From Dehalococcoidia bacterium (GTDB lineage Bacteria; Chloroflexota; Dehalococcoidia; SZUA-161; SpSt-899): a DNA stretch of 63,288 bases. The stretch covers positions 1 through 63,288 of the forward strand of contig JAWOBX010000047.1 in the NCBI GenBank assembly GCA_046484125.1, written 5' to 3'. The notes below the pieces were generated by a model. The model saw nothing but the letters and a program-made list of their open reading frames with translations, was not told the DNA's origin and searched no databases. The stretch's first letter is position 1. Every line of letters begins with the position of its first letter. The position numbers and the translations under genes are program-made. This document shows, piece by piece, positions 40,693 to 58,042 of this stretch.

Positions 40693-41355
40693 ATGTGTAA
40701 TATCATGAAGAACCCCGAGCAGGCGTCAGTGGAGGCCATGCTTTTAAAAAGGGATTACCAGCGACTGGTTGAACTGTGCCAGGCTCGGAAATTCGCCTGG
40801 AAAGCGCTGCACTCAAAAATATATGAAGGGGATGAAAAGTTGTCATGGCCTGCGGTAGAGGCTATAGCAATGGTGATGCGGCAATGGTGGGAGCAGGGAG
40901 GGGAGGCTAAGGTCAGGGAGTATATCAGGAGACTGTTCTGGGCGCTTAATGATGAGTCGGGAGGGATAGGCTGGAACGCGCCCCAGACAATTGCGGAAAC
41001 CATCGTACTGATTCCCGAACTGCTCGATCCCTACGGCAGCATGATGATAGACAGGACCATTGACGAGAAGTTGCTGGTTCAGGGCGGGTTGTGGGGGATG
41101 GGCCGCCTGGGAAATAGAATTATAAACTCGGTGGATTTCTTCCAGGAGAGAATTCTGAGTGTTTTCAAGGGAAATGATCCGCAGAAGCTCGGGCTAGCCG
41201 CCTGGGCGATGGGGGAAGTGGGGTTTGAGAAGGCGTTGATCCACCTGACATCGCTCCGGGGGCGAACTGAGCCTGCCAGAATATATATTGAAGGGGAGTT
41301 CTACTCAAAACCGGTTGGTCAATGGGCGCAGGAGGCTGCGTACAGAATTCAATAA
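40693..41355 (+). CDS. Hypothetical helical-repeat (HEAT-like) protein
   Basis: The ORF fills the gap and looks like an alpha-helical repeat. It is possibly DVU0298-like, but I cannot verify that. Confidence 0.4.
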   Translation: MCNIMKNPEQASVEAMLLKRDYQRLVELCQARKFAWKALHSKIYEGDEKLSWPAVEAIAMVMRQWWEQGGEAKVREYIRRLFWALNDESGGIGWNAPQTIAETIVLIPELLDPYGSMMIDRTIDEKLLVQGGLWGMGRLGNRIINSVDFFQERILSVFKGNDPQKLGLAAWAMGEVGFEKALIHLTSLRGRTEPARIYIEGEFYSKPVGQWAQEAAYRIQ

Positions 41356-41657
41356 TCGGGTTGCTCGACTAAAAAGGCTCATAGCAGCAGTTCTCAGGCG
41401 AAAATAAACATTTCATACTTATTGAATTCATTGATTATTCCGGCCACCCGTTTGCGTTTTCGCTGCGTAGCGTGAAATATCCACCCTTACGGTCTTCCAT
41501 ATCGTTTTGCCTGAACCGCTTGTGTAACCGTTTCATTCATTTTCATAGTTCTCTAACGAATTATGGAATTACCCTTTTCCTTGACGCGGCTGATTAGATA
41601 TGATATGTTGATAAAGTCGATAAACAATAACAACAAATATTATTCGGATAAAAAACT

Positions 41658-42095
41658 ATGAAGATTTCCACCAAAGCAAGATATGGCGTCAGGACATTGA
41701 TAGATGTGGCATTACATCAGGGGGAAAGGCCTGTCCCGCTTAAAGACATAGCAGGCAGGCAGCAGATCACGCTCCCATATCTGGAGCAGATAGTTCCTTC
41801 GATGGTAAAGGCCGGCTTCTTGAGAAGCATACGTGGGCCATCAGGCGGAGTAAGGCTGGCGAAATCTTCAGAGAATATCAGAATCAGCGAGGTAATAGAG
41901 GCCATGGATGGCTCAATGGCGCCGGTTGACTGTGTCGATGATCCGGAGATCTGCGAAAGGTCTGACCAGTGCGTTACATGCGATGTATGGACCAAAATAA
42001 AAGAGGCTGTTGACGGGGTTCTGGAGTCGGTGACACTGCGGAGTCTGGTCGAGCAGCAAAGGGATAAGCTGAGAGAAAAGAAGGATGCCCGATGA
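41658..42095 (+). CDS. Rrf2 family (IscR-like) transcriptional regulator with Cys cluster
   Basis: MKISTKARYGVRTLIDVAL... wHTH, with C-x6-C-x5-C-x2-C (CVDDPEICERSDQCVTC). Confidence 0.9.
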   Translation: MKISTKARYGVRTLIDVALHQGERPVPLKDIAGRQQITLPYLEQIVPSMVKAGFLRSIRGPSGGVRLAKSSENIRISEVIEAMDGSMAPVDCVDDPEICERSDQCVTCDVWTKIKEAVDGVLESVTLRSLVEQQRDKLREKKDAR

Positions 42096-42132
42096 CCATG
42101 ATAATAGAGACGGAGCGAAACGGAGGAGAAAA

Positions 42133-43272
42133 ATGAAGTTCGTTGAAGATCTCGGCCGAAGGATGAAGGATAGAGCAGGCGAGTTGCGAGAACTGAGTTC
42201 GGGAGGTACGAAGGTAGTCGGGTACTTTCCAGGCGGTTATTTCCCTGTCGAACTGGCGTATGCCGCCGGAGCTGTGCCGGTCGCGTTGAACCGAGGGGGT
42301 GACCATGAAGCGGTAGAAATCACAGGCTCTTACATGTCCCGATGGATATACACATTCGGGCGCGCCAATTTCGGTTACAAACTTCTGGGAAGCGAACCGG
42401 TTTATGAGAATATCGATATCTATTTTATTCCAATAACCGATAATCACGTACGCATGGTGGCTGACACATGGGATGTCTTCACCGATGTTGAAGTGTTTCG
42501 CTTCGGTGTCCCCCACACCAGACACGAGTGGTCCGTCGATTATTTCCGAAACGGTATGGAAATGCTTAAAGCCCGGCTGGAAGAACTGACGGGCAACCAG
42601 GTTGATGATAAGAAGCTGAATGAAGCGATAGAATACTCCAACAGGGAGAGATGGCTGTTTGAGGAACTTCGTGATATGAGGAAAGCCGAGCCTCCGGTTA
42701 TATCCGCCCGCGATTTCGTAGCGCTCAACCACGCATCGCTCATGCTCGACAGGAGTGAGATGGTGGAGCGATTACAGAAAATAGTGAATGAATTGAAAGA
42801 AGGTGGTCGGCCTGAACCGGCGAGACCACGCCTGATGCTAATGGGGACAACGCTGGCATATGGTGACTACAGGATACTGGATATGATTGACACGGCCGGT
42901 GGTGATGTGGTGGTAGAGGAGTTCGGCGAAGGTGTGCGGCCTTACCAGCAGCCGGTAGCCATTAATGGAAATCCGATGAAGGCACTGGCGGAGACATATT
43001 TCTCGACAAGGGTTCCACCGGCGTGGTTCAGGCCCAATGTTGAAAGGCAGGAGCTGGCCGTAAAACTGGCCAGAGAATACGCCGTCGATGGCGTAATCTG
43101 GTATCAGATGATGAACAGGGAATCTGACGAATTTGAATCTTACTGGTATCCGGAGGTCTTTCGAGAAGGGGCGGGGGTCCCCATGCTGAAGCTGGTCTCG
43201 GATTATGATTCAGTTGAGAGGGGATCTTTCCAGACCCGGCTCGAAACTTTTATGCAGATGGTAAGGAGGTAA
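42133..43272 (+). CDS. 2-hydroxyacyl-CoA dehydratase / benzoyl-CoA reductase BcrC-BadD-HgdB family subunit, cysteine-free
   Basis: Family-typical layout (VVGYFPGGYFPVELAYAAGAVPV ... DGVIWYQMMNRESDEF). The translation contains zero Cys. ATG 42133 follows GGAGGAG. Confidence 0.7.
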   Translation: MKFVEDLGRRMKDRAGELRELSSGGTKVVGYFPGGYFPVELAYAAGAVPVALNRGGDHEAVEITGSYMSRWIYTFGRANFGYKLLGSEPVYENIDIYFIPITDNHVRMVADTWDVFTDVEVFRFGVPHTRHEWSVDYFRNGMEMLKARLEELTGNQVDDKKLNEAIEYSNRERWLFEELRDMRKAEPPVISARDFVALNHASLMLDRSEMVERLQKIVNELKEGGRPEPARPRLMLMGTTLAYGDYRILDMIDTAGGDVVVEEFGEGVRPYQQPVAINGNPMKALAETYFSTRVPPAWFRPNVERQELAVKLAREYAVDGVIWYQMMNRESDEFESYWYPEVFREGAGVPMLKLVSDYDSVERGSFQTRLETFMQMVRR

Positions 43273-43274
43273 TT

Positions 43275-44678
43275 ATGTACTACAGGGAGCTTTTCAGGCT
43301 TTGCAACTACTCTAACGAGGAAATAGAAAGAGAAGCACCGCGTATCGAAAAAGTATTCGAAAGGGCGGGTATAACTGAGGCGGACGTCGACCGTGCCATT
43401 GAAAGATTGAACAGGCATTTCTGGATGGAATCGGAAGGTGTGAGGAAGATATGGGGTATATGGATGAAGCAGTTCATCGACCTGGCGCTGTGCCGCGAAG
43501 AACATGAAAAGGTGGTGTTCTATACATATCCCCTGGAGCCGAGAATGGGGACATCGATAAATCTGGCCGGGGATTACTATGCCGCGACTCCCGAGTTCGT
43601 AAACATGTTCATACTGGGGCTCATGTTCGGACTCTCCGATTCCTATTTCGATCTCGCCGAGGCAAACGGGATGACGCCGGGAACCGGCATGTGCGGTGCC
43701 AACAAGATGAGGCTGGGAGGTTTCCTAAAGGAGCTGAATCCCATGCCGGATGTCTTCCTCGTCTCCAGCTTCTTCTGCGACAATGAGGCGAAAACGGATG
43801 AGCTGATCAGCTATCACTTCAAGGGTGTGCCTCGTATAATTGTCGACAACGTTCTGGATTCCAACTGGGATGTGTATCCGAACAACTATCCCTATATTGA
43901 GGATCATAAGGTCAAATACTTTGCCGCGGAGTTGCAGAATGTTATTACTCAGCTGCGGGAGAATTTTGGCATCGATGTAAAGCAGGATCACCTGAACCAG
44001 GCACGCATGGAGATCGGTAAACTCTACCTCGGTTTCCAGAGGGTCCTCGAATGTCAGAAAGCGGACCCCATGCCGATAGGAAACAACAATCTGCTGTTAT
44101 TTTACATGATGATCACTAATCCGGAGCGTAGAACCATGGAAGAAGGCCTTGATGCCATAAATCTGCTGGCCCGCGACGCTGAGGCAAGGGTGGAAAAAGG
44201 GGAGGGGGTGACACCGAAAGGGGCGCCGAGAATCGCCTGGACCATGCCGTGGTTCACCGATCCGTCTATCAATACCATGGTGGAGGAAACCGGCATTGCG
44301 CCAGTGGTGGCGCCATTCTTCTGGGTGCATCCATCGGATATGACCAAAACCGATTACAAGGGATTTGAAAAGACGGCCGTGGCCTTCATGCGAATGGGTA
44401 TTATGCATAGCACTTCAGGCTTGATCTTTCGCCTTACGGAGTGTGTCAGGCATTTTAACCTCGACGGCATGATCTGGAACGGGATGTATTCCTGCCGGCC
44501 GACCGGTGGCCCGGCTCCAATAGTCAAGAAACTGGTGGAGAAGGAGACCGGAGTGCCTGTATTGATAATTGAGACAGACCAGATGGATAGCAGAGATACA
44601 ACCACGGAGATGCTGCGCACAAAAATCGAGACCTTCGCCGAAACCCTGCGTATCAGGAAACAGGCACCGGTTGTGTAG
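43275..44678 (+). CDS. 2-hydroxyacyl-CoA dehydratase family subunit with cluster-ligand cysteines
   Basis: GMCGANK, SSFFCDNE and MYSCRPTG lie at the three canonical ligand positions. Confidence 0.7.
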   Translation: MYYRELFRLCNYSNEEIEREAPRIEKVFERAGITEADVDRAIERLNRHFWMESEGVRKIWGIWMKQFIDLALCREEHEKVVFYTYPLEPRMGTSINLAGDYYAATPEFVNMFILGLMFGLSDSYFDLAEANGMTPGTGMCGANKMRLGGFLKELNPMPDVFLVSSFFCDNEAKTDELISYHFKGVPRIIVDNVLDSNWDVYPNNYPYIEDHKVKYFAAELQNVITQLRENFGIDVKQDHLNQARMEIGKLYLGFQRVLECQKADPMPIGNNNLLLFYMMITNPERRTMEEGLDAINLLARDAEARVEKGEGVTPKGAPRIAWTMPWFTDPSINTMVEETGIAPVVAPFFWVHPSDMTKTDYKGFEKTAVAFMRMGIMHSTSGLIFRLTECVRHFNLDGMIWNGMYSCRPTGGPAPIVKKLVEKETGVPVLIIETDQMDSRDTTTEMLRTKIETFAETLRIRKQAPVV

Positions 44679-44766
44679 GCAGTCATAACAGGGTGGAAGG
44701 GCCGTAAGCGGTCGCACAGGGGCTTGATCAGGGCTTCCGCAGCGAGAAAGTCGGAAAGGAGTTCAA

Positions 44767-44973
44767 ATGGAGACAACACTTAAGGTAAAGGGAATGTCAT
44801 GCGAGCACTGCGTTCAGCGGGTAACGAAGGCGCTTCAGGGCGTCTCCGGCATACACAATGTCAAGGTCGACCTGGGTAATGCCATTGTAAGCTTCGATAA
44901 GCCGGAGGATGTGCCGCTGGGAAATGCCATCAAGGCGATCAGTGAAGAGGGATATGAGGTGCAGGATAGCTAA
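44767..44973 (+). CDS. copZ: HMA-domain metallochaperone (CopZ-like)
   Basis: LKVKGMSCEHCVQRV...AISEEGYEV. Confidence 0.9.
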   Translation: METTLKVKGMSCEHCVQRVTKALQGVSGIHNVKVDLGNAIVSFDKPEDVPLGNAIKAISEEGYEVQDS

Positions 44974-45029
44974 TCGCCGACACCGGCAAATTCCCGGTTC
45001 GCTTTATCACAAACGGGTGGGGGTGCAAA

Positions 45030-46232
45030 ATGGGTAAGACAATCGCCGGGATAAATGAAAAAATTCGGAAAGGGGAGGCGGTGGTGGTGACTGCCGAGGA
45101 AGTCATAGGTGCTGTTGAAGAAAAAGGGATCGAAAAGGCTGCCAGGGAGATAGACGTGGTAACCACGGGAACATTCGGTCCGATGTGCTCTTCGGGTGCC
45201 TATTTCAATCTGGGTCACTCAGTGCCACGCATCAAAATCGGCGGTGGCCGGGCGACTTTCAACGATGTCCCGCTCTATACCGGCCTTGCGGCGGTGGACG
45301 TCTTCCTGGGAGCGACTGCTGTACCTGATGATGATCCCCGGAACAAGGTATATCCCGGCTCATTCGAGTACGGTGGCGGGCACGTGATTGAGGAACTGAT
45401 GGCCGGCAAGGAGGTAAGGTTTGCAGCCTCGGCTTATGGAACCGATTGCTATCCCGGAAAATACATCGAAACCATGATCAGTCTGGAAGAGTTAAATGAG
45501 GCCGTTCTGTTCAATATGCGAAACGCCTATCAGAACTACAATGTGGCGGTGAATCTATCCGACAGAAGACTGCACACATATATGGGCGTTCTTAAGAGTA
45601 ATCTGGGCAACGCGAATTATTGCAGCGCCGGCCAGCTTTCGCCGCTGTTAAACGATCCGCTATATAAGACTACAGGAATCGGTACGAGGGTGTTCCTGGG
45701 AGGGGGGACGGGATATGTTGCCTGGCACGGAACCCAGCACAATCCCGGTGTCCCAAGAGGTGAGAATGGCGTGCCTCGAAGACCTTCCGGGACCCTTGCC
45801 CTGATCGGTGACCTCAAACAGATGAATTCCTCCTGGCTGAGGGGGATAAGCATGCTTGGTTACGGTACCTCTATGGCTGTGGGTGTCGGGGTGCCGATCC
45901 CTGTGTTGTCTGAGGAGATATTGCGTTATACCACGGTGCGGGATGAGGAAATATTCGCTCCCATCGTGGATTACTCGGAGGGTTACCCGCAGCGGAAGCC
46001 TGATGTCCTCGGCGAGGTGAGTTATGCCCGTCTCAGAAGCGGCATCATTGAGGTTGAGGGAAAGGAGGTCCCTACGGGATCCCTTTCAAGTTATCCCAAA
46101 GCAAGGGAAATAGCCCTTACTCTGAAGGAGTGGATCCGGAGAGGGGAATTCCTGCTCACCGAACCGGTTGCGCCGTTACCCGGGGTGGAGTCAGGAATTC
46201 AGTTCAAGCCGCTTAATGAGAGAATGGATTAG
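45030..46232 (+). CDS. COG1900/DUF39 homocysteine biosynthesis protein (MA1821-like)
   Basis: About 400 aa with a family-typical N-terminus (INEKIRKGEAVVVTAEE). Followed by its usual NIL-ferredoxin partner. Confidence 0.7.
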   Translation: MGKTIAGINEKIRKGEAVVVTAEEVIGAVEEKGIEKAAREIDVVTTGTFGPMCSSGAYFNLGHSVPRIKIGGGRATFNDVPLYTGLAAVDVFLGATAVPDDDPRNKVYPGSFEYGGGHVIEELMAGKEVRFAASAYGTDCYPGKYIETMISLEELNEAVLFNMRNAYQNYNVAVNLSDRRLHTYMGVLKSNLGNANYCSAGQLSPLLNDPLYKTTGIGTRVFLGGGTGYVAWHGTQHNPGVPRGENGVPRRPSGTLALIGDLKQMNSSWLRGISMLGYGTSMAVGVGVPIPVLSEEILRYTTVRDEEIFAPIVDYSEGYPQRKPDVLGEVSYARLRSGIIEVEGKEVPTGSLSSYPKAREIALTLKEWIRRGEFLLTEPVAPLPGVESGIQFKPLNERMD

Positions 46233-46275
46233 CGGTTACTTTAGCGTTCATAACAGGAATGCGGAGGGCGTGGAT

Positions 46276-46686
46276 ATGAATGTTACAAAAAGAGTTGTTT
46301 TGCATTTCCCGGAGAAGCTGGTCGATCAACACATTATGTGCCGGCTTGCAAAGGAATTTGGTATAGATTTTAACATATTGAAGGCTTCGGTAACTCCCAG
46401 GGAGGAAGGTCTGCTGGTCATCGAACTGAGTGGTACGGAGGATGGTTACCAGAAGGCCAGCGATTATTTGATACAAACCGGGGTGGCGGTACAGCCGTTG
46501 AGCCAGGATATAGTACGTGATGAAAACAGCTGTACTCATTGTGGTGCCTGCCCGGTACTCTGTCCGACTGGAGCTCTGACAGTTACTCGTGACTCAATGA
46601 AGGTCGTGTTTGATGACAGCAGGTGCATAGCCTGCGGGGTATGTATAAATGCCTGCCCGGTTCGGGCGATGAAAATCAGATTCTAA
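46276..46686 (+). CDS. NIL domain + 2x[4Fe-4S] ferredoxin protein (MA1822-like)
   Basis: NILKASV in the NIL domain, with CTHCGACPVLCP and CIACGVCINACP. ATG 46276 is used. Confidence 0.8.
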   Translation: MNVTKRVVLHFPEKLVDQHIMCRLAKEFGIDFNILKASVTPREEGLLVIELSGTEDGYQKASDYLIQTGVAVQPLSQDIVRDENSCTHCGACPVLCPTGALTVTRDSMKVVFDDSRCIACGVCINACPVRAMKIRF

Positions 46687-46928
46687 TGACTGGTTAGGGA
46701 ATGAAGATACCAGGAAGTAATATGGTCCGGAGTGAGAGTGAAGACGGTGTTTTGTATGGAAATAGAGAGTGGATTTCAGAATATGGACCGGTGAAGCCGT
46801 CCAGCGCCCGTGCGGCGCAGAAGTTAATGGAAGAGGGGTTTGTCAATCCTGTTACAATTGAGGGGGGCTGTATGCCGAGGAAGAAGTCGGTAACCCTCTG
46901 GAAAGACAGGCTTATGAGGGGGAAGATA

Positions 46929-47720
46929 ATGGATGATATCACCATCTCTCGAGCGATTACAGAGACATTTATAAAGGACTTCATCGATTCAATGGAAGTG
47001 GAGGTAGCGATCGCAGGAGCCGGTCCGTCGGGGATGACCGCTGCCTACTATCTGGCGAGGGAGGGGATAAAAACAGCGGTTTTCGAGAGGAGCCTCCGGC
47101 CAGGTGGGGGGATGCCAGGTGGGGGCATGATGTTTAACCGGATCGTCGTACAGGATGATGGTAAGAATATACTTGATGAGTTTGGGATCAGATCGAGCGA
47201 GTACGCCCGAGGCTGTTTCACAGCCGATTCCCTGGAGACAGTGGCGACGATTTGCTCCAGGGCAATCCAGGCTGGAGCGAAAATATTCAATCTCATAAGT
47301 GTTGAGGATGTGCTGATTAAAGAAGATGAAAGCATCACCGGACTGGTTCTCAACTGGAGCGCGGTGCAGATGGCAAATCTGCACGTGGATCCTCTCGCGG
47401 TGAAGGCGGGAGTGGTCATTGACGCCACCGGGCATTCCAGTGAGATATGCCGGATTGTGACCAGGAAGATCGGGCCTGGATTAAATACCGCCTCTGGCGA
47501 GGTAATTGGGGAGAAACCTATGCTGGCTGAAGCGGGGGAAAAAGACCTTATCAACAACACCCGGCAAGTATATCCCGGATTACTGGTTACCGGCATGGCG
47601 GCCAACGCTGTGTACGGTTCCCCCAGAATGGGAGCTGTTTTTGGGGGAATGCTCCTTTCGGGGAAAAAGGCCGCTGAGCTTGCTCAACAAATAATTAGGG
47701 AACCTCTGAACAAGTGGTGA
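46929..47720 (+). CDS. thi4: Thiamine thiazole synthase Thi4 (archaeal/eukaryotic type)
   Basis: [18 protein letters not shown] dinucleotide fold, [11 protein letters not shown] and [12 protein letters not shown] 46929 is preceded by AGGGGGAAG; the track start at 46701 is an extension. Confidence 0.85.
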
Positions 47721-47795
47721 CTTTGGGGGTCTGGGGTTACCCCCAGCTTTATAAGTCCCCCATAATTGGGGGACTTAATGGGGTTGATCAGAGGT
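47716..47795 (-). repeat. Family-1 repeat, copy D (reverse orientation)
   Basis: The reverse complement reads AACCTCTGATCAACCCCattaagtCCCCCAATTATGGGGGacttataaagCTGGGGgtaaCCCCAGACCCCCAAAGTCACC. It overlaps the thi4 stop codon. Confidence 0.8.
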
Positions 47796-47820
47796 TCCTT
47801 AACAGGGGATAAAGAATTTA

Positions 47821-48003
47821 TTGGACGTTACTATGCCACTGGGTACACTAACGGGAAAATTGCTACAATTCTGGTCATGGCTGTCGAATGATAAGTCCTG
47901 CCAGGAATGTACATCACGCAATGATCAATGTGATGGGTGTCATATTGGTTATGGGCCACACAAGTATATAGTTAAAATTGTTACAAAGGAGCAGCGAAAA
48001 TGA
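47821..48003 (+). CDS. Possible small CxxC...CxxC protein translationally coupled to the IscS-like gene
   Basis: CQEC..CDGC, and its stop overlaps the ATG of the next gene (ATGA). The start codon and RBS are weak, so it could be spurious. Confidence 0.3.
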   Translation: MDVTMPLGTLTGKLLQFWSWLSNDKSCQECTSRNDQCDGCHIGYGPHKYIVKIVTKEQRK

Positions 48004-49187
48004 GTGAAATCTATCTTGACAACTTGTCGGCGACGCCGGTGGATCCCAGGGTCCTGGAGGAGATGCTGCCATATTTCCGGGAATCTTTTGGAAACCCGGT
48101 TGCCTTTGGCGATCGGGGAGGCAGGGCGAGTGATGCCGTCGAAAATGCGCGTACCAGGGTGGGAAATCTCATAAACGCGACGTCGAACGAGATCATCTTC
48201 ACCTCGTGCGGAACTGAGTCGAACAACATGGCCATCAAAGGATTGGCCATAGCCCGCAGGGGGAGGGGAAGGCACATTATCATATCGTCCATTGAACATT
48301 TTTCCGTACTTCATCCGGCGCGCACTCTGGAGAAACTGGGGTTCGAGGTCACCCAGTTGCCCGTGGATGAATACGGGAAGGTGGACCCGGAGCAAGTGAA
48401 GCAGAATCTGAGGCAGGATACCACACTTGTGTCGGTGATGTATGCCAACAGCGAAGTCGGCACCATACAGCCGATAAAGGAGATAGCCTCACTGGTCAGA
48501 GAGTCAGGGGCGGTTTTTCATACAGACGCGGTCGCCGCCGCCGGCGTTGTTCCCCTTGATGTTCAGGATCTGGGTGTGGACTGCCTGAGCATGGCGGCCA
48601 GCCAGTTCTACGGTCCTACGGGAGCGGGAGCGCTGTGGCTTCGCCGTGGGATACAGATAATGCCGCTGCTCGAGGGAGGGGTACAGGAATCGGATAAGAG
48701 GTCGGGGACACATAACGTGCCGGCCATTGTCGGACTGGGGAGGGCGGCGGAACTGGCTCAGGAGGAGATGGAATCGAGGAATCGGCATATCGCCGGATTG
48801 CGGGACAGGCTGAGGGACGGGTTGACAGAGCGTATCGACCATATAGTTCTAACCGGGCATCCGACTGACCGACTGCCCGGTAATGTTAGCCTGTGTGTCA
48901 ATTTCATTGAGGGCGAGGCCATGCTGGCCTTCCTGGAGAACGCCGGGATCGCCGCGGCCAGCGGTTCAGCCTGCACCTCAAAAATGCTCAAATCATCCCA
49001 TGTTCTCCATGCAATGGGTTATGCGCCTGAGGTGGCCCAGGGCTCACTTCTCTTCACACTCGGGAAGGAGAACACCAATGAGGACATTGAGCCTGTGCTG
49101 GAAGCTTTCCCGCCCATCGCGGACAGGTTACGGCAAATGTCCCCCCTGTATGATAAATTCCTGAAGAGCCAGAAAGGAGGAAACTAA
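48000..49187 (+). CDS. NifS/IscS-like class V aminotransferase-fold protein lacking the PLP Schiff-base lysine
   Basis: GTESNN, SSIEH and the persulfide loop ASGSACTS are present. The SGHK motif reads AASQ (VDCLSMAASQFYGPTGAGALWLRR). Confidence 0.8.
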   Translation: MSEIYLDNLSATPVDPRVLEEMLPYFRESFGNPVAFGDRGGRASDAVENARTRVGNLINATSNEIIFTSCGTESNNMAIKGLAIARRGRGRHIIISSIEHFSVLHPARTLEKLGFEVTQLPVDEYGKVDPEQVKQNLRQDTTLVSVMYANSEVGTIQPIKEIASLVRESGAVFHTDAVAAAGVVPLDVQDLGVDCLSMAASQFYGPTGAGALWLRRGIQIMPLLEGGVQESDKRSGTHNVPAIVGLGRAAELAQEEMESRNRHIAGLRDRLRDGLTERIDHIVLTGHPTDRLPGNVSLCVNFIEGEAMLAFLENAGIAAASGSACTSKMLKSSHVLHAMGYAPEVAQGSLLFTLGKENTNEDIEPVLEAFPPIADRLRQMSPLYDKFLKSQKGGN

Positions 49188-49190
49188 ACG

Positions 49191-49772
49191 ATGCCGGCTT
49201 ACAGCGAGAAGGTGATGGAATACTTCATAAATCCCCGCAATGTAGGGGAGATAGAGGATGCGGATGGGATCGGGGAGGAGGGGAACCCGGTTTGCGGGGA
49301 CATGATGACGTTCTACATAAAGGTTGATGATAACCGCCTCAGCGATGTGAAATTCAAAACCTTCGGCTGCGGGGCCGCGATAGCCGTCTCGAGCATGGTC
49401 AGCGAGATGGCCATGGGGAAGACAATTGACGAGGCCCGGAAGATAACTCCAGCGCTGGTGGCGGAGGAACTGGGCGGATTGCCAAAGGAGAAATTCCACT
49501 GCTCCAACCTGGGAGCCCAGGCCCTGAACCGGGCCATTGACGATTATGAAGCTCGCCAGCGCGGTGAGAAACCGGCGGATGAGAAAAGGGGCGCAAAGCC
49601 CGAAGTGGCGGAAAAGGGCCAGTGCTATTGCCCCAACTGCGGGGACGAGCTTGAACAGGGGGAGGCCCCCTACTGCCGGCCCTGCCAGATAGTTCTGCGC
49701 ACCTGCCCCAACTGCAGGAAAGTGGTCACTCAGGACGCGACAGAGTGCCCGGCATGCACGACAGTACTGTGA
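49191..49772 (+). CDS. iscU: IscU/NifU-N scaffold with C-terminal double zinc-ribbon extension
   Basis: NPVCGD, FGCGAAIA and HCSNLG. An extra 60-aa tail carries CYCPNC, CRPC, CPNC and CPAC. Confidence 0.85.
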   Translation: MPAYSEKVMEYFINPRNVGEIEDADGIGEEGNPVCGDMMTFYIKVDDNRLSDVKFKTFGCGAAIAVSSMVSEMAMGKTIDEARKITPALVAEELGGLPKEKFHCSNLGAQALNRAIDDYEARQRGEKPADEKRGAKPEVAEKGQCYCPNCGDELEQGEAPYCRPCQIVLRTCPNCRKVVTQDATECPACTTVL

Positions 49773-49783
49773 GGGGAAACAGT

Positions 49784-50218
49784 ATGGCGAGCGTAGTGGC
49801 TGTATGCCGAAGCCACAAGAAAGGTGTCAGAAAGGAGCCTGTAAACGAAGGGGTCTTCATTGAAGGTACAGGGCTTATTGATGACGCTCACGCCGACAGC
49901 AGGACGCATAGGCAGGTCAGCCTGCTGGCAGTAGAGAGCATAAACAGAATGCGTAATTTTGAAAATGAACTGAAGCCGGGAGACTTCGCCGCGAATCTGA
50001 CTACAGAGGGGATTGAGTTAAAATCGCTGCCGGTTGGGACAAGACTGGCTATCGGTGAAGAAGTATTGCTTGAAGTCAGCCAGATTGGAAAAGAGTGTCA
50101 TACAAGGTGCGCGATTTACAGGCAGGTCGGTCAATGTATAATGCCTGCGGAAGGCATATTTGCACTTGTTGTTTGTGGTGGGGTTGTGAGGGGTGGTGAT
50201 AGAGTTTGTATAGCCTAG
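49784..50218 (+). CDS. MOSC domain protein
   Basis: HRQVSLLA...GDFAANLTTEG...ECHTRC. Confidence 0.75.
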   Translation: MASVVAVCRSHKKGVRKEPVNEGVFIEGTGLIDDAHADSRTHRQVSLLAVESINRMRNFENELKPGDFAANLTTEGIELKSLPVGTRLAIGEEVLLEVSQIGKECHTRCAIYRQVGQCIMPAEGIFALVVCGGVVRGGDRVCIA

Positions 50219-50276
50219 ATGTGCGTTCAACAATCGCTCACCGATAAAGTGCTAGGCCTACTGAGGACGTGAGAAA

Positions 50277-51068
50277 ATGCCAGAAGAAACGATCGGAGCC
50301 AGAATTTTAAGAGTAACGGAGAAGGAAAGCATTGAAAGTGATGATGTAGTCGTAAGGGAGTTTCCATTGACCATCACCTTGAATGACGAAGAACTCGCTA
50401 CTATGTTGTGCTCCCCTTCCAGTTTGGAATATTTGGCTCTTGGATTTCTGGCGTCCGAAGGACTGATACGTAGCCGCGAGGATGTCGGGCAAGTTCAGCT
50501 TAATGAAACCCGTGGAACAGTGCGGGTCGAGACAGTGGGTAAGCCTTCACTTGACAGGGACATGGTCTTTAAGAGGTTTATAACATCCGGTTGTGGTAAG
50601 GGTACCATGTTGTACTCCTTCGCCGATGCTATGAACCGGAAGAAGGTGGAATCTCAACTGGAGGTATCACCCGCTCAGATCTTTTCTCTCATGAAGGAAT
50701 TTCAGACTCGTTCCGAAGTATTCCGTGAGACTGGTGGCGTTCATAGTGCGGCACTCGCCGATGGGGAGAATATCCTCGTTTTCAGTGAGGACATCGGCAG
50801 GCATAACGCCGTCGACAAGGTGTTCGGTGAGTGCTTGTGGGAGGGAATTTCAACCCGTGACAGGATTCTGCTTACCAGTGGGCGCGTTTCTTCGGAGATC
50901 ATGTTTAAAATAGCCAAACGGGAAGTTCCGGTTATTGTTTCCCGATCCGCCCCTACTGACCTGGCAATCAAAACGGCCTCCGAACTCGGAATAACCCTTG
51001 TCGGATTCGTCAGAGGAAAGCGGATGAATGTTTATGCGGGGGATGGGCGGATTCGAGGAATTACCTGA
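50277..51068 (+). CDS. fdhD: Formate dehydrogenase accessory sulfurtransferase FdhD
   Basis: Typical FdhD motifs (SGCGKG, GGVHSAAL, GRHNAVDK, SRSAPT) and length. Confidence 0.88.
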   Translation: MPEETIGARILRVTEKESIESDDVVVREFPLTITLNDEELATMLCSPSSLEYLALGFLASEGLIRSREDVGQVQLNETRGTVRVETVGKPSLDRDMVFKRFITSGCGKGTMLYSFADAMNRKKVESQLEVSPAQIFSLMKEFQTRSEVFRETGGVHSAALADGENILVFSEDIGRHNAVDKVFGECLWEGISTRDRILLTSGRVSSEIMFKIAKREVPVIVSRSAPTDLAIKTASELGITLVGFVRGKRMNVYAGDGRIRGIT

Positions 51069-51118
51069 TGCAGATGGTCAGCTAGTGCACTGTCCCTGAC
51101 GGTTCTAAACAAATGTTT

Positions 51119-51166
51119 CGAATTGCTCTTTTCACCGCATTGCTTCACTAAAAAGGGATAGCACAC
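51119..51166 (+). repeat. Family-2 conserved element, copy 3 (short form)
   Basis: gaaTTGCTCTTTTCACCGCATTGCTTCACTAaaaAGGGAtAgcACAC; 27 nt are identical to positions 5-31. Confidence 0.6.
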
Positions 51167-51189
51167 AGGGGCAGCGACAGGAGAAGATA

Positions 51190-52098
51190 ATGACAGATGA
51201 ATTATCGGATCGGATAAACAGGTTACGGAAGGAGAGAAATGCCATCATCCTGGCCCATAACTATCAGCGGGGTGAAGTTCAGGATATCGCTGACTTTGTC
51301 GGGGATTCACTGGAGCTGAGCCGGAAAGCGGCCGGGGTTGAGGCCGATGTAATCGTATTCTGCGGAGTACATTTCATGGCCGAAACCGCATATATATTGT
51401 CTCCCGACAGGACAGTCCTGCTGCCGGATGAAAACGCCGGCTGTCCCATGGCGGACATGATTGACGCCGAAGGATTGCGGAAGCTGAAGGCCGAGCACAC
51501 GAATGCCAGGGTGGTATGCTATGTCAATTCCACGGCTGAAGTAAAGGCTGAGAGTGACATATGTTGCACATCGGCGAACGCGGCTCAAATTGTGGCGTCG
51601 CTCCCGGTTGATGAAGAGATCATTTTCGTTCCGGATCAGTACCTGGCGCATTACGCCGCCACTCAGGCCGGTCGGGAGGTAATCCCGTGGCATGGTTATT
51701 GCCCGACTCATGTAAAGATAATTCCCCCTGACATCGAACGATTGAGGCGGGAGTATCCAGACGCCAAAGTGGTTGTTCATCCGGAATGCCTGCCCGAGGT
51801 GATTGCCATGGCTGATGAGGTAGCCAGCACGAGCGGGATACTCAAGTTCTGTCAAAGGGAGGATGTCAGGGAAGTCATCGTGGGCACAGAGATGGGGATA
51901 ATCCACAGACTGCAAAAGGAGAACCCGGGCAAGAAGTTTATACCCGTCTCCGAAAGAGCGGTTTGCCCCAATATGAAACGCATCACACTGGATAAGGTAC
52001 TCAAGGCCCTCGAGGATCTGGCACCCAGGGTGCGGGTTCCTGAGGATATCCGCCTCAAAGCCAGGGCTGCCGTGGACCGGATGGTGGAGACACAATAA
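51190..52098 (+). CDS. nadA: Quinolinate synthase NadA
   Basis: ILAHNYQ, FCGVHFMAET and YVNSTAEVKA; full length. Confidence 0.93.
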   Translation: MTDELSDRINRLRKERNAIILAHNYQRGEVQDIADFVGDSLELSRKAAGVEADVIVFCGVHFMAETAYILSPDRTVLLPDENAGCPMADMIDAEGLRKLKAEHTNARVVCYVNSTAEVKAESDICCTSANAAQIVASLPVDEEIIFVPDQYLAHYAATQAGREVIPWHGYCPTHVKIIPPDIERLRREYPDAKVVVHPECLPEVIAMADEVASTSGILKFCQREDVREVIVGTEMGIIHRLQKENPGKKFIPVSERAVCPNMKRITLDKVLKALEDLAPRVRVPEDIRLKARAAVDRMVETQ

Positions 52099-52210
52099 CT
52101 CCAGGGCGGGAAGGTCTCATCACAAAGTCACCGGCCTGCTATATCCCAATGCCAGTTTACTTAACAGCATCCCGAAGACAGTTGGTATTTAGTGGAATCG
52201 GCGCGGATAA

Positions 52211-52915
52211 TCACATTGACCGCCTGGCTGCCCTGTGAATGGCAGCGGCGCCGAACAACAAAAGATCGTAGCTGACTGTGTTGAAGCCGGATCGGCGAAT
52301 GATTGAGGCCAATTCGTCGGCGCTATAGAAACGGCGCATTGAGTTGGAGAGGTAGTCGTAAGGCTCGAAAGAACCGGAGATAATTCCGCCCACGGGCTTG
52401 ACCACCAACTTGACATAAATATGATGCAATTCTCTGAGCCAACGATTTCGCGGCTGGCTGGTCTCGAGGTTGACGAAGACTCCTCCTGGCTTCAAAACCC
52501 TGTGGAATTCGCTGAGGCAAACGGAGAGGTTGCCCTCTCCTGAGCTGTCGATGTTGCGCGAGGCGAAAGACAATGTGATTGCGTCGAATAATTCATCGCG
52601 GAAGGGAAGGTGCGTCGCTTCGGCAAGTATCAATGCCACATCACTGTGTGCCAATCTTTCACGGGCCTTTTTCATCATCGGTAAAGAGAAGTCTATAGCA
52701 ACTATACGGGTATGCTCATCGGCCAGCCGATTGAGATTGAGAGTCATATCTCCGGTGCCCATCCCCGCATCCAGCCAGAGGCTCCCCCCGGCCGAAGACG
52801 CAATCAAAGCAGCCTTTCTTCGCCAGAGGATATCCAGGCCAAAGGTAAGTACATGATTCACCATCTCGTAGGTTCGGGGAATGCTGACGTATAATCGCTG
52901 GATTCTGCTGTACAT
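52211..52915 (-). CDS. ubiE: UbiE/MenG-family demethylmenaquinone/ubiquinone C-methyltransferase
   Basis: YEMVNHVLTFGLDILWRR and DAGMGTGD, a SAM motif I. Confidence 0.8.
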   Translation of the reverse strand: MYSRIQRLYVSIPRTYEMVNHVLTFGLDILWRRKAALIASSAGGSLWLDAGMGTGDMTLNLNRLADEHTRIVAIDFSLPMMKKARERLAHSDVALILAEATHLPFRDELFDAITLSFASRNIDSSGEGNLSVCLSEFHRVLKPGGVFVNLETSQPRNRWLRELHHIYVKLVVKPVGGIISGSFEPYDYLSNSMRRFYSADELASIIRRSGFNTVSYDLLLFGAAAIHRAARRSM

Positions 52916-57985: not shown

Positions 57986-58042
57986 GTCTTTTTTTCATTT
58001 CGATTACAGCTCAGGCTGCAGGTCCAATTTTCCCTTAAATTT

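Follow-up and report, generated by a model that had tools for sequence, protein, structure and literature searches.

The region at 41658-52098 of the 63-kb window (the whole stretch of DNA analysed) is fairly probably a lineage-specific permutation of a recurring Dehalococcoidia neighbourhood, most likely forming two transcription units and containing a PLP-less IscS-like protein (IscS*) as partner of IscU. In its gene order the region represents a local reshuffling of a neighbourhood recurring across Dehalococcoidia, and its genes come from known families responsible for incorporating sulfur into methionine, thiamin, iron-sulfur clusters and the molybdenum cofactor. Judged from its residues, the most unusual component is IscS*, which lacks those required for taking sulfur from cysteine. 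The original prediction had placed twelve plus-strand genes here, and both this co-orientation and the sulfur- or Fe-S-related nature of the products were borne out. The predicted domains were found by profile matches at the expected coordinates, except for that of a 60-aa CxxC ORF (47821-48003). The features are as follows.

41581..41609, +, sigma-70-like promoter candidate upstream of Rrf2, TTGACG-17-TATGTT with TG extension (consensus scan)
41607..41628, +, degenerate IscR type-1-like operator GTTGATAAAGTCGATAAACAAT, overlapping the -10 box (PWM)
41658..42095, +, Rrf2-family regulator, IscR-like (Fe-S type); PF02082, 129 bits
42133..43272, +, HGD-D family protein (HgdB/BzdN/DCCP-like), ORF from 42085; PF06050, 237 bits
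43275..44678, +, HGD-D partner subunit (HgdA-like); PF06050, 139.5 bits
44767..44973, +, CopZ-like HMA metallochaperone with MxCxxC; PF00403, 56 bits
45030..46232, +, COG1900/DUF39 (HcyBio) subunit of L-aspartate-semialdehyde sulfurtransferase; PF01837, 492 bits
46273..46686, +, NIL-domain and 2x[4Fe-4S] ferredoxin partner (NIL-Fd); NIL, 60 bits, plus Fer4 families
46701..46913, +, decayed rhodanese-like remnant in frame with Thi4 (tblastn)
~46914..47720, +, domain of a non-Cys (sulfide-dependent, catalytic type) Thi4 thiazole synthase, ORF from 46701; TIGR00292, 324 bits, cutoff 148
47721..47800, +, dispersed double-hairpin G5/C5 element; MFE -40.6 kcal/mol, z -3.1
47929..47972, +, candidate IscS-block promoter: CRP/FNR-like palindrome TGTGATGGGTGTCATA (47929-47944), 22 nt, -10 box TATAGT (47967-47972)
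48000..49187, +, IscS*/NifS-like protein without PLP lysine (Gln202) and substrate arginine (Leu351), loop Cys325 kept; Aminotran_5, 255 bits
49191..49772, +, IscU scaffold (Cys35, Asp37, Cys60, His103, Cys104) with double zinc-ribbon tail; NifU_N, 159 bits
49784..50218, +, small MOSC-domain protein from the likely ATG, ORF from GTG 49745; PF03473, 36 bits, cutoff 22.7
50277..51068, +, FdhD sulfurtransferase/chaperone for Mo/W-bisPGD; TIGR00129, 217 bits, cutoff 141
51190..52098, +, quinolinate synthase NadA, a [4Fe-4S] enzyme; NF006878, 445 bits, cutoff 294

NadA is the last gene and is followed by a convergent UbiE-type methyltransferase gene. The short gaps that had been predicted were seen for most genes (≤121 nt), but those between NIL-Fd and Thi4 (~227 nt, given a Thi4 start at 46914) and between Thi4 and IscS* (279 nt) are longer. 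Because the whole 36-63 kb part of the window is mostly plus-strand, the shared strand alone is unremarkable; the functional grouping is above chance, since the same grouping reappears in relatives.

None of the relatives examined (loci designated by L numbers) had the exact 12-gene order; conservation is at the level of modules, whose order varies, rather than of a fixed gene order. The module IscS*-IscU-(MOSC)-FdhD-NadA was located in L001-3, L007, L008, L023 and L091, in relatives at ~80% identity, and in L092 the IscS-NadA block begins its own unit after a divergent POR operon; IscU came directly after IscS* in 78 of 80 species loci. With COG1900 as the anchor, NIL-Fd followed it directly in 66 of 68 metagenome loci, a non-Cys Thi4 lay ahead of it in 40 of 57 loci, and COG2122 came after it in about 60. 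Rrf2, COG1900 and NIL-Fd were contiguous in L001 and L002, as were Rrf2 and COG1900 in L023, a locus ending inside COG1900; in these three, Rrf2-COG1900 was downstream of the IscS block, the reverse of the window order. The fully annotated L096 has an Rrf2-headed 12-gene array (Rrf2-CysK-Thi4-CysE-COG1900-NILFd-COG2122-IscS(K)-CDF-MOSC-FdhD-NadA) in which IscS(K) is canonical, and tblastn gave the same order for L129 where matched. Since it recurs in related genomes, the grouping behind Rrf2 is no accident of the window. The original prediction knew of no description of such an arrangement; its exact 12-gene order was indeed absent from the relatives examined, but for Cys-type Thi4s a like clustering with NifS, NifU, MOSC, FdhD, HcyBio, CysK/E and ThiF/S is already in the literature (PMC13325395).

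Neither the HGD-D pair nor CopZ is a conserved cluster member; both represent lineage-specific inserts. In relatives the HGD-D pair stays together as a two-gene unit beside BcrAD_BadFG activases, in some cases also an MFS transporter, and no sulfur genes accompany it; CopZ beside COG1900 was not conserved in the relatives' loci. The first HGD-D gene was set at 42133-43272 because the public gene call is 379 aa; its product scored 186 bits against the double-cubane model NF040772, under the cutoff of 350, and its nearest solved structures were DCCP (7YYL/6ENO), BzdN and HadC, while PDB matches of the partner subunit were weak. The CopZ-like protein scored 61-67 bits against the CopZ NCBIfam models, under their cutoffs. 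A CopA P-type ATPase is encoded at 31117-33747 in the window.

The Rrf2 protein scored 123 bits against the IscR model TIGR02010, under the cutoff of 207.55, and the three cluster cysteines of its Cx6Cx5C motif were kept in 11 of 11 aligned orthologs. A TTGAC-N17-TAxxxT layout precedes the Rrf2 orthologs of 11 relatives; support for the promoter is thus positional conservation, not statistics, since the scan total was not above that of shuffles. The original prediction had suggested looking for Rrf2 binding motifs both upstream of 41658 and within the cluster; one operator was located at the head, but it is degenerate, and no second was found in the region. It was the top PWM match in the 63-kb window (16.7 bits vs 12.0 for the next), whereas relatives had GTTGAY-N7-RGTCAAC with 24-33 bits at the equivalent position upstream of Rrf2. 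In 775 kb of independent metagenome loci, matches of ≥19 bits occurred only just upstream of Rrf2 genes (5 loci), and the operators of several relatives fit exactly the published IscR type-1 core YYGACTRWWWYAGTCRR (PMC3899308). The second half-site of the window's operator is degraded or lost, and Rrf2 regulation in the window may therefore be weak or lost.

COG1900 and NIL-Fd had been compared with the methanogen pair MA1821/MA1822; both domains were found, but the system is bacterial, from an uncultured member of the Dehalococcoidia (Chloroflexota) and not from a methanogen. The bacterial DUF39 pathway has COG2122 as its third gene and requires it in D. vulgaris (PMC5764234); this gene is absent from the window. 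By position only, Cys53 and Cys140 of the COG1900 protein, which has no CBS domain, are probably the counterparts of Cys54 and Cys131 of MA1821 (PMC12068725). In L001 COG1900-NILFd is followed by a rhodanese-like gene, and the rhodanese remnant was similar to its C-terminal part (tblastn, 63% identity over 27 aa, E 1e-4). A C-T-TGA motif in the L001 copy includes an in-frame TGA, and manual alignment revealed Gly and Glu at those two positions of the remnant; it is possible that 46701-46913 is an N-terminal extension of Thi4 or an untranslated spacer. As predicted, Thi4 has no Cys in its DATGH motif: its VIDATGHSS contains the same DATGH as solved non-Cys THI4s, including its best solved match, T. 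ammonificans THI4 (7RK0, E 4e-79), and a Thr aligns with Cys172 of Arabidopsis THI4. Every Thi4 in the related clusters is likewise of the DATGH type.

IscS* scored 497 bits against the NifS equivalog, under the cutoff of 530.75. The predicted absence of the PLP lysine was evident from alignment with 9WEP (SAHK to AASQ), and among the 120 closest homologs this position was Gln in 114, Glu in 1 and Val in 1, with 4 not parsed. In 140 representatives, 24 of the 28 without Lys had also lost the Arg, and the loop Cys was invariant in all Lys-less ones. Coupled Lys/Arg loss with the loop cysteine kept is as in A. fulgidus IscS, for which a role as ligand, the sulfur coming from sulfide, has been indicated (PMC7585200). 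The tail of IscU, a separate gene in L004, scored 21.9 bits against DZR, under the cutoff, and four CxxC pairs were read from its sequence. For the MOSC protein, the match to the MoaC/MOSC model PRK14499 covers the MOSC half of that model, and its ortholog in L091 has 144 aa; of the E. coli C121/C124 pair, FdhD keeps the first Cys only, as in 2PW9.

The double-hairpin element in the gap between Thi4 and IscS* has an inverted copy at 62918-62997 of the window (80% identity) and copies with stem-preserving changes in L013 and L162. It is likely a transcript boundary or stabiliser; it may fail to terminate transcription, since no U-tract follows it. Alignment showed the CRP/FNR-like site to be kept upstream of IscS* in L001, L007, L023, L091 and L092, where a TAGAAT-type -10 box follows after 21-22 nt. 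With ≤1 mismatch the motif occurred 5 times in the window vs 1.68 expected (4 of 5 intergenic), and across 85 loci the 150 nt ahead of IscS* showed ~21-fold enrichment of a relaxed form. No CRP/FNR-type regulator gene was present among the annotated window ORFs. The 60-aa ORF overlaps this conserved promoter-type site and had neither a family match nor a tblastn match in any relative, which leaves it unsupported.

Because the repeated double hairpin and the conserved CRP/FNR-like site with its -10 box precede IscS*, two transcription units are likely. The original prediction of a single operon from Rrf2 to NadA, with all 12 genes under the Rrf2 repressor, would agree with the co-orientation, the mostly short gaps, a scan calling no canonical intrinsic terminator in them, the presence of one Rrf2-type operator only, and the tight array of L096. 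Short salt-lake metatranscriptome contigs (six with 0 mismatches and four more with 1-6) lay on HgdA, HMA, COG1900, NILFd, the NILFd/Thi4 junction, 47789-47957, IscS and IscU, although these fragments are 150-270 nt and could include DNA. The one at 47789-47957 begins at the hairpins and lies upstream of the internal promoter proposed here; it would also suit a single operon, and read-through from the first unit is therefore possible. A single operon is nevertheless unlikely, given the 279-nt gap with its very stable repeated hairpin, the class-II-type spacing of the CRP/FNR-like site and -10 box in both the window and relatives at ~80% identity, the degenerate head operator, and the IscS block standing by itself in L092, behind divergent genes, and in L001 and L091, behind unrelated ones. 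It is also conceivable that rearrangement of a small, gene-dense genome brought unrelated housekeeping genes together, their juxtaposition having no functional meaning; consistent with this are the absence of the exact order from relatives, the interspersed unrelated genes (the HGD-D pair, CopZ, the CDF transporter of L096, and a methyltransferase and permease in L035) and the rhodanese remnant, which indicates recent reshuffling. Recurrence in different permutations, however, is a classic mark of selection for linkage or co-regulation; the same families re-associate in at least 4 orders, as seen via two independent anchors (IscS* and COG1900), and conserved regulatory sites go with the modules, making chance highly improbable.

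Sulfide rather than cysteine had been proposed as the sulfur source. Three types known or inferred to use sulfide are indeed present, namely COG1900 with NIL-Fd, the non-Cys Thi4 and the Lys-less IscS, and the suf genes at 27862-29822 are, as predicted, only a SufB/SmsB-like and SufC pair; the flanking genes encode a NifB-like radical SAM protein and a rubrerythrin, and SufS and SufE are missing. This is not a rule of the neighbourhood, however, as cysteine synthase, serine acetyltransferase and a canonical Lys/Arg-containing IscS belong to most of the related versions. IscS* could be a PLP-independent persulfide carrier, passing sulfane sulfur to IscU, MOSC and FdhD after its Cys325 is loaded by another protein (a canonical IscS elsewhere, a rhodanese or a DsrE-type protein), and the system would then stay cysteine-based upstream. 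We regard this as possible but doubtful. It fits the invariant loop Cys, the canonical IscS a few kb from IscS*-IscU in many Dehalococcoidia (L024, L030, L035, L042, L059, L063, L065, L075, L078, L081), the DsrE-like genes in related clusters and rhodanese genes in L001, and the canonical IscS upstream of MOSC-FdhD-NadA on the same strand in L096 and L129, the slot of IscS* here; moreover, E. coli FdhD receives its sulfur from IscS (PMC6239281). On the other hand, the window's cluster has no functional rhodanese or nearby DsrE, a canonical desulfurase, which many relatives have, is absent from the 63-kb window, and the A. fulgidus ligand role is the sole biochemical precedent. A weak DsrE-like ORF lies 24 kb away from the cluster.

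In the favoured arrangement of two units, the first (~41581-47720) would be headed by the IscR-like, Fe-S-sensing Rrf2 repressor, transcribed from its own promoter and acting in its holo form at the weakened type-1-like operator. Behind it would come the insert, a heterodimeric HGD-D radical-enzyme pair with a copper chaperone, then COG1900 and NIL-Fd, predicted to make homocysteine from aspartate semialdehyde and sulfide, and finally the rhodanese remnant and the catalytic, sulfide-using Thi4. The second unit (~47929-52098) would begin at the CRP/FNR-type site, where it may be activated or repressed, and open with a minimal ISC-type pair whose IscS-like member is presumably unable to bind PLP or cysteine. 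On the model of A. fulgidus IscS, IscS* may still dock on IscU and lend its loop cysteine to a nascent cluster built there from Fe2+ and free sulfide. MOSC and FdhD would follow for sulfuration and insertion of Mo/W-bisPGD, together with the Fe-S client NadA, and IscU, MOSC and FdhD would actually receive their sulfur from sulfide.

ORF listing and profile searches identified the following genes in the array, which ended after NadA at a convergent gene for a UbiE-type methyltransferase.

Genes of the sulfur and cofactor array (ORF listing and profile searches)
41658-42095, plus strand: Rrf2 regulator
42085/42133-43272 and 43275-44678, plus strand: two HGD-D (HgdAB-like) proteins
44767-44973, plus strand: CopZ-like HMA protein
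45030-46232, plus strand: COG1900/HcyBio protein
46273-46686, plus strand: NIL domain plus 2x[4Fe-4S] ferredoxin (NIL-ferredoxin)
46701-47720, plus strand: Thi4, ORF from 46701, domain from about 46914
48000-49187, plus strand: IscS/NifS-like protein
49191-49772, plus strand: IscU, with a tail containing four CxxC pairs
49745/49784-50218, plus strand: MOSC, small protein
50277-51068, plus strand: FdhD
51190-52098, plus strand: NadA

This agreed nearly item by item with the gene list of the original prediction, except for a 60-aa "CxxC ORF" (47821-48003), which was dropped as a conserved gene on finding no family match and no homolog in any relative; its sequence contained a conserved palindrome and a -10 box. 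The suf genes at 27862-29822 were, as predicted, a SufB/SmsB-like gene paired with SufC, and neither SufS nor SufE was adjacent. Rfam searches of the whole window gave no RNA or riboswitch at the gathering threshold, nor any at E up to 1 in the region 41300-52300, and riboswitches in the gaps, such as a TPP riboswitch upstream of Thi4, were therefore rejected. It was also observed that a 282-aa ORF (52918-53766, minus strand), convergent with NadA and located upstream of the UbiE-type methyltransferase gene, had no match in Pfam, NCBIfam or PDB and that its AGRDS stretch and CPGC motif recall PP-loop ATPases.

The window is bacterial, encoding an ABC-F protein, PhoR-type kinases, SecA and Lon, and the close homologs of the IscS-like protein and of the HGD-D protein were all from Dehalococcoidia/Chloroflexota MAGs; an archaeal or methanogen origin was ruled out on these grounds. 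Therefore, the methanogen systems cited in the original prediction are analogues, and for COG1900 the applicable precedent comes from bacteria, in the DUF39 pathway of Desulfovibrio (PMC5764234). Public runs containing the window sequence were freshwater-sediment and salt-lake metagenomes. Elsewhere in the window, a dense oxidative-stress and metal island occupied approximately 15000-35700 on the minus strand, with six rubrerythrin-family ORFs, a flavodiiron protein, a peroxiredoxin fragment, ferritin, rubredoxin, a DUF255 thioredoxin-like protein, SufBC (SMS-like), a NifB-like radical SAM gene, a CopA ATPase with a YHS domain, an FMN reductase and DJ-1. The catalase-peroxidase gene katG (18042-20225) was situated in a segment of 61.6% GC compared with about 51% elsewhere, which suggests that it was acquired horizontally.

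Conservation of the arrangement was examined with two anchors. Alignment of homologs of the IscS-like protein without the PLP lysine (hereafter Lys-less IscS) against one genome per species yielded 80 loci (given below as L numbers, as are the other related loci), which were then searched with the window's proteins. IscU was directly 3′ of the Lys-less IscS in 78 of the 80, the remaining two being contig ends, and within 10 kb of it were found Rrf2 (12 loci), MOSC (9), COG1900 (8), NadA (6) and FdhD (5). The block Lys-less IscS-IscU-MOSC-FdhD-NadA, with a zinc ribbon on IscU, was present in relatives at about 80% identity (L001-3, L008, L023 and L091); L007 had Lys-less IscS-IscU-FdhD-NadA without MOSC, and in L092 the block started after a divergent pyruvate:ferredoxin oxidoreductase operon. 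Downstream of the block followed Rrf2-COG1900-NIL-ferredoxin in L001 and L002 and Rrf2-COG1900, at the locus end, in L023, an order that is the reverse of the window's and that included no HGD-D pair, CopZ or Thi4.

The second anchor, the COG1900 protein searched against metagenome contigs, also gave 80 loci (72-78% identity). NIL-ferredoxin came directly after COG1900 in 66/68 loci, a non-Cys (DATGH) Thi4 was immediately 5′ of COG1900 in 40/57, and a 245-aa PRK04334 protein, which we take to be of the UPF0280/COG2122 family, followed NIL-ferredoxin in about 60; Thi4-COG1900-NIL-ferredoxin-COG2122 is thus a tight conserved unit in Dehalococcoidia, with Thi4 of the non-Cys type. Larger arrays recurred as ThiF-MOSC-FdhD-NadA-Thi4-COG1900-NIL-ferredoxin-COG2122 and as IscS-IscU-ThiF-NadA-Thi4-COG1900 and onward, and the fully annotated L096 read Rrf2-CysK-Thi4-CysE-COG1900-NIL-ferredoxin-COG2122-IscS-CDF-MOSC-FdhD-NadA, with the same tblastn order in L129 where genes were matched. 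The IscS of these larger arrays was canonical, having both the lysine and the substrate arginine. Gene order, whose conservation had been proposed as a check of the original prediction, was therefore retained at the level of modules, which recur shuffled and with variable extras, and the window's exact order was not found; as such shuffled modules, the grouping is real and recurrent. Larger sulfur neighbourhoods were also seen in other Dehalococcoidia (L063:4248-12261, L035:6104-21088 and L096:7052-17333), including cysteine synthase, serine acetyltransferase, canonical IscS and a second IscU, ThiF/MoeB-like adenylyltransferases, DsrE-family and AIRS-family proteins, CutA1, and the metal transporters CDF and ArsP with a YHS domain; metal-homeostasis genes thus recur within related sulfur clusters, as does CopZ in the window.

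Part of the window's array is peculiar to its lineage. The HGD-D pair consists of two adjacent subunits of about 380 and 467 aa (PF06050, 237 and 139.5 bits) scoring below all equivalog cutoffs, the nearest solved structures being the double-cubane cluster protein (DCCP), BzdN and HadC. Homologs with 52-63% identity showed that the two genes are kept together in four relatives (L087-L090), where they are adjoined by one or two BcrAD_BadFG activases and, in two, by an MFS transporter, with no sulfur genes beside the pair; the pair was therefore rejected as a conserved member of the sulfur module. Like the HGD-D radical enzymes (2-hydroxyacyl-CoA dehydratases, class I benzoyl-CoA reductases and DCCPs), the window has two HGD-D subunits, but no BcrAD_BadFG activase gene was present among its annotated ORFs and the pair is placed behind Rrf2 only in this lineage. 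Window positions 55093-60604 are syntenic with L087:1-4932 (ABC-F, methyltransferase, TetR, ABC ATPase and ABC-2 permease), and in L087 the HGD-D pair, two activases and a C_GCAxxG protein are located about 5 kb downstream of the shared block. Because L087 shares this block with the region downstream of the array, the pair seems to have been relocated locally in the window's lineage. CopZ was not conserved beside COG1900 in relatives, and a CopA ATPase is encoded 11 kb away in the window. We treated the HGD-D pair and CopZ as lineage-specific inserts between the Rrf2 regulator and COG1900.

The spacer between NIL-ferredoxin and Thi4 resembled the C-terminal part of a rhodanese-like gene behind COG1900-NIL-ferredoxin in L001 and is likewise a record of reshuffling. 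In the window, this remnant (46701-46913) is a decayed C-terminal rhodanese fragment in frame with Thi4. In L001, a relative at about 80% identity, tandem rhodanese-like domains follow COG1900-NIL-ferredoxin (L001:17387-18510; also in L002), and the gene calls are split by an in-frame TGA in a C-T-TGA-P motif (ITYCT*PDENSSARAAQ), with an AIRS-family (SelD/HypE/ThiL-like) gene just downstream. The L001 gene looks like a putative rhodanese-type selenoprotein with a CxU site, and the window remnant has Gly and Glu at the positions of the Sec and Cys of L001.

The original prediction placed all the genes in one operon under Rrf2. Directly 3′ of Thi4, a double-hairpin element of about 75 nt (47721-47800) was found, comprising two G5/C5 hairpins (MFE -40.6 kcal/mol, z -3.1) and a GGGGTTGATCAGAGG tail. 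Copies were located at window 62918-62997 (inverted), L013:4654-4719 and L162:12953-13017, at gene ends in several Dehalococcoidia loci, with the stems kept through paired changes (GTC/GAC versus ATC/GAT). Rfam had no match for the element, and it could be a REP-like repeat, a terminator/stabiliser or a small RNA. Further downstream, the palindrome TGTGATGGGTGTCATA occurred at 47929-47944 with TATAGT 22 nt downstream, a layout (47929-47972) typical of class II promoters of the CRP/FNR type. The palindrome, the distance and the -10 box aligned upstream of the Lys-less IscS in L001, L007, L023, L091 and L092, and more distant loci had a related motif, TGnGAC-N4-GTCnCA, at -63 to -72 (some further upstream), about 21-fold over background.

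Matches to the palindrome with at most 1 mismatch numbered 5 in the window versus 1.7 expected, 4 of them intergenic. These intergenic CRP/FNR-type palindromes (TGTGA-N6-TCACA, 0-1 mismatch) are located at 34872-34887, 35920-35935, 40561-40576 and 47929-47944; the perfect one stands before a small glutaredoxin-like ORF with CPHC, itself upstream of an FMN-reductase gene, and of the others one is upstream of a DJ-1/PfpI gene and one between MaoC and DVU0298-family genes. The four sites suggest a candidate redox/stress regulon that would include the Lys-less IscS block. A CRP/FNR-family regulator gene was sought among the annotated window ORFs and was not found there, and a regulator encoded in the window was accordingly discarded.

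A scan for consensus promoters and terminators gave counts that did not exceed those of shuffles and was therefore used for positions only. Salt-lake metatranscriptome data, as short Logan contigs, contained parts of both proposed units (approximately 41581-47720, Rrf2 to Thi4, and approximately 47929-52098, Lys-less IscS to NadA) in RNA libraries; one contig fell between the hairpins and the proposed promoter of unit 2, and these contigs, being too short for boundaries, indicate presence and not operon limits. With the conserved palindrome and -10 box and the hairpin element inside it, a single Rrf2-controlled operon was not upheld; two transcription units are more likely than one, because of the boundary element, the second promoter site and the independence of the block in relatives.

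The regulator heading unit 1 had a clear Rrf2 domain (PF02082, 129 bits versus a cutoff of 30; TIGR00738, 131 versus 73) and scored below the equivalog cutoffs for IscR (TIGR02010, 123 versus 207.55 bits) and CymR (118 versus 195); given the TIGR02010 score it was filed as IscR-like and not as IscR. Its cluster cysteines Cys91, Cys98 and Cys104 (Cx6Cx5C) were conserved in a paralog as well as in 11/11 orthologs; at the fourth ligand position the window protein has Cys107, and others have Arg or His. Upstream of the orthologs in eleven relatives, a TTGAC-N17-TAxxxT promoter was followed directly by the palindrome GTTGAY-N7-RGTCAAC, which in exact form occurred once per locus. A PWM built from these relatives' sites, which score 24-33 bits, was tested on 775 kb of independent metagenome loci, where matches of at least 19 bits occurred five times, each just upstream of an Rrf2 gene. 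The core of the IscR type-1 operator is YYGACTRWWWYAGTCRR (PMC3899308), and several relatives' sites fit it exactly, TTGACTAATTTAGTCAA in L084 among them; L084 also provides an example of a strong site (GTTGACTAATTTAGTCAAC). Relatives at about 80% identity had a variant of this type-1-like operator. In the window, the best PWM match (41607-41628, 16.7 bits) had its second half-site degraded, and the next, of 12 bits, was located outside the cluster. Of the Rrf2 motifs to be looked for upstream of 41658 and within the cluster, a degenerate candidate was thus present at the former position and none, by the PWM, at the latter, and a second operator inside the cluster was rejected.

Compared with iscRSUA-type operons, in which IscR is autoregulated at type-1 sites (E. 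coli and P. aeruginosa), the three cluster cysteines are shared, the relatives' palindrome fits YYGACTRWWWYAGTCRR and overlaps the regulator's own promoter, and in L084 the regulator directly precedes Lys-less IscS-IscU. However, the spacing here is Cx6Cx5C, the fourth ligand is not His in the window, the score is below the IscR cutoff, the genes behind the regulator are usually cysK, COG1900 and Thi4 and not iscSU, the window operator is degenerate, and the Lys-less IscS has a different promoter-proximal site.

Within unit 1, COG1900 matched PF01837 (HcyBio/DUF39) with 492 bits and MMP16 (COG1900d) only weakly (120 bits versus a cutoff of 364). MA1821 has an essential Cys54 and a second conserved Cys131 (PMC12068725), to which Cys53 (FGPMCSSGA) and Cys140 (YGTDCYPGK) of the window protein were matched by position only. 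As in the DUF39/COG1900, NIL-ferredoxin and COG2122 pathway of M. acetivorans (MA1821/MA1822/MA1715) and Desulfovibrio, the HcyBio protein is adjoined by a NIL-ferredoxin subunit carrying NIL plus 2x[4Fe-4S], and an anaerobic bacterial host is common to the window and Desulfovibrio. The window COG1900 differs in having no CBS domain, and L096 and other relatives also have CysK, CysE and IscS in the neighbourhood. COG2122/UPF0280, the third partner, required in D. vulgaris (PMC5764234), had no tblastn match in the 63-kb window and may be located elsewhere in the genome.

Thi4 was well supported (TIGR00292, 324 bits versus a cutoff of 148; PF01946, 274 bits), and the absence of an active-site Cys noted in the original prediction was borne out by the alignment: VIDATGHSS aligned with vvdatgh of 7RK0, 4Y4N and 4Y4M, and Cys172 (SSCGH) of Arabidopsis Thi4 with a Thr. 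The window protein is predicted from these residues to be of the catalytic non-Cys, sulfide-dependent type, sharing the DATGH motif with the catalytic non-Cys THI4 of T. ammonificans (Joshi et al. 2021, PMC8454699); non-Cys Thi4s were reported there with TRASH and metal genes, and COG1900 was unmentioned. Recurrent Thi4 neighbours have been described as NifS, NifU, MOSC, FdhD, HcyBio, CysK/E and ThiF/S, a list that agrees with the genes next to Thi4 here, but for Cys-type (suicide) Thi4s (Oliveira-Filho et al. 2026, PMC13325395), whereas the partner here is a non-Cys Thi4.

The protein heading unit 2 has the fold of a cysteine desulfurase (PF00266, 255 bits; solved cysteine desulfurases matched at E 1e-134). 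Its PLP lysine (E. coli K206) is missing, in agreement with the original prediction, with Gln202 in its place (SAHK replaced by AASQ) and the neighbouring Ser/His contacts also altered. Among the 120 closest homologs (62-82% identity), this position was Gln in 114, Glu in 1 and Val in 1, with 4 not parsed, and SGSAC was kept in 120/120, the loop cysteine being Cys325 in the window protein. The substrate-carboxylate arginine, by what we take to be the equivalent numbering E. coli R354, was missing as well (GSLLFTLG versus the canonical GSLRFTLG); in canonical cysteine desulfurases this arginine binds the cysteine carboxylate. A residue survey was made of 140 sequences, 135 nearest 50%-identity cluster representatives and five from the window's own clade.

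Residue states in the IscS survey (n = 140)
Lys present, Arg present, loop Cys present: 110
Lys absent, Arg absent, loop Cys present: 24
Lys absent, Arg present, loop Cys present: 4
Lys present, Arg absent, loop Cys present: 1
Lys present, Arg present, loop Cys absent: 1

The arginine was missing in 24/28 non-Lys representatives, and the sole sequence without the loop Cys (1/140) retained Lys and Arg; by these counts, the losses of the PLP lysine and of the arginine are tightly coupled. Coupled losses with a kept loop Cys would be expected of a non-desulfurating protein whose cysteine loop is still in use. Monophyly of the Lys-less class was not adopted, a rough NJ tree, too crude to tell one origin from several, having given about 9 pure non-Lys clades.

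One such protein is A. fulgidus IscS, which is inactive and acts as a ligand of the IscU-bound [2Fe-2S] cluster (PMC7585200, PMC13066941). As in A. fulgidus IscS-IscU (4EB5/4EB7) and M. acetivorans IscS1 of the minimal ISC system (MIS), the lysine is replaced and the loop Cys kept, the IscS-like gene is directly upstream of IscU with no HscAB, Fdx or IscA nearby, and the anaerobic host has a SufBC-only (SMS-like) system. The window host is, in contrast, bacterial, the replacement is Gln and not Asp, the substrate arginine is also gone, IscU has a zinc-ribbon tail, and the pair is joined to MOSC, FdhD and NadA. The closest solved homolog was the Lys-containing 9WEP (452 bits), ahead of 4EB5 (389 bits), and descent from the archaeal form is therefore unsupported; 9WEP, 9WEW, 9WER, 9WFE and others, the nearest solved homologs, are 406-aa cysteine desulfurase entries that differ among themselves by a few substitutions near the PLP site, apparently a mutational or engineered series of a single study. 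By analogy, the Lys-less IscS would be an A. fulgidus-type PLP-less partner of IscU, without desulfurase activity.

The main rival explanation is that the Lys-less IscS is a PLP-independent persulfide relay loaded by another protein. It is favoured by the canonical IscS paralogs of relatives, found within a few kb of the Lys-less IscS in many Dehalococcoidia, and by L096 and L129, where a canonical IscS fills its slot. The window is without such a paralog, as tblastn with a Lys-containing paralog matched only the Lys-less IscS and no canonical cysteine desulfurase was found there.

As for the partners in unit 2, IscU matched NifU_N (PF01592, 159 bits), with Cys35, Asp37, Cys60, His103 and Cys104 read from the sequence. 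The pairing of NifS with MOSC mirrors the domain architecture of the eukaryotic Moco sulfurases (ABA3/MOCOS), but in the window MOSC stands alone, as a protein of about 144 aa. FdhD (TIGR00129, 217 bits versus a cutoff of 141) had an incomplete CXXC loop (E. coli C121/C124), with the first Cys only (SGCGKG), as in 2PW9; this motif is not universal, and FdhD takes sulfur from IscS (PMC6239281). An IscS-family gene with FdhD and MOSC is thus common to the window and to the systems of IscS-FdhD sulfur transfer to bis-MGD and of NifS-like plus MOSC Moco sulfurases, except that the IscS-family member here is predicted from its residues to be unable to desulfurate cysteine and that FdhD has a single Cys.

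What was observed is gene identities, residue states and conservation; which donors supply the sulfur, whether genes are repressed or activated and where the transcripts begin and end are our inferences for the two units. In unit 1, the IscR-like repressor would sense Fe-S status and control itself and the genes behind it, COG1900 (through Cys53) with the ferredoxin would convert aspartate semialdehyde and sulfide to homocysteine, and Thi4 would form thiazole from NAD, glycine and sulfide. In unit 2, Lys-less IscS-IscU would put clusters together out of sulfide and Fe2+, Cys325 providing the fourth ligand, MOSC and FdhD would sulfurate and hand over Mo/W-bisPGD, and NadA would be a client. A broader proposal is that Dehalococcoidia and other anaerobes with a non-Lys/non-Arg IscS possess a cysteine-independent sulfur hub: the PLP-less IscS-like protein and IscU may build Fe-S clusters from free sulfide or a loop-Cys persulfide, may also feed MOSC and FdhD for Moco sulfuration, and may be controlled by a CRP/FNR-type stress/redox regulator, and the neighbouring unit may make homocysteine and thiazole directly from sulfide. 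We regard this broader proposal as rather doubtful.

Each part of the locus belongs to a described family, and the locus is not a new kind of system. The original prediction knew of no description of such an arrangement; clustering of Thi4 with sulfur genes has been published, for the Cys type (PMC13325395). In the limited literature searched, where absence is absence of evidence only, we did not find the Dehalococcoidia-wide Lys/Arg-less IscS-IscU pair, its joining with MOSC-FdhD-NadA, the non-Cys Thi4/COG1900/NIL-ferredoxin/COG2122 unit, or the two candidate regulatory sites (Rrf2 operator and CRP/FNR-like).

The locus bears on how sulfur is routed into the cofactors of strict anaerobes, without or alongside cysteine desulfurases: among Fe-S machineries, MIS is described as the one studied least (PMC13066941), and for COG1900 enzymes the donor of the sulfur is reported as not known (PMC12068725). 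The locus gives testable hypotheses on cysteine-independent sulfur trafficking in bacteria, the leads being a large bacterial IscS-like class that has lost the PLP lysine and the substrate arginine and always kept the loop cysteine and the IscU partner, the recurrent linkage of this pair, or of canonical IscS, with MOSC, FdhD and NadA, the tight non-Cys Thi4/COG1900/NIL-ferredoxin/COG2122 unit, and two candidate regulatory sites that are directly testable. If the proposed cysteine-independent hub is true, bacteria would have an equivalent of the methanogens' sulfur economy based on sulfide, and in it the pseudo-desulfurase would be an active carrier and not a relic. Dehalococcoidia play an important part in the cycling of carbon and organohalides in the subsurface and are difficult to grow, and knowledge of their sulfur and cofactor needs is of practical value for cultivation.
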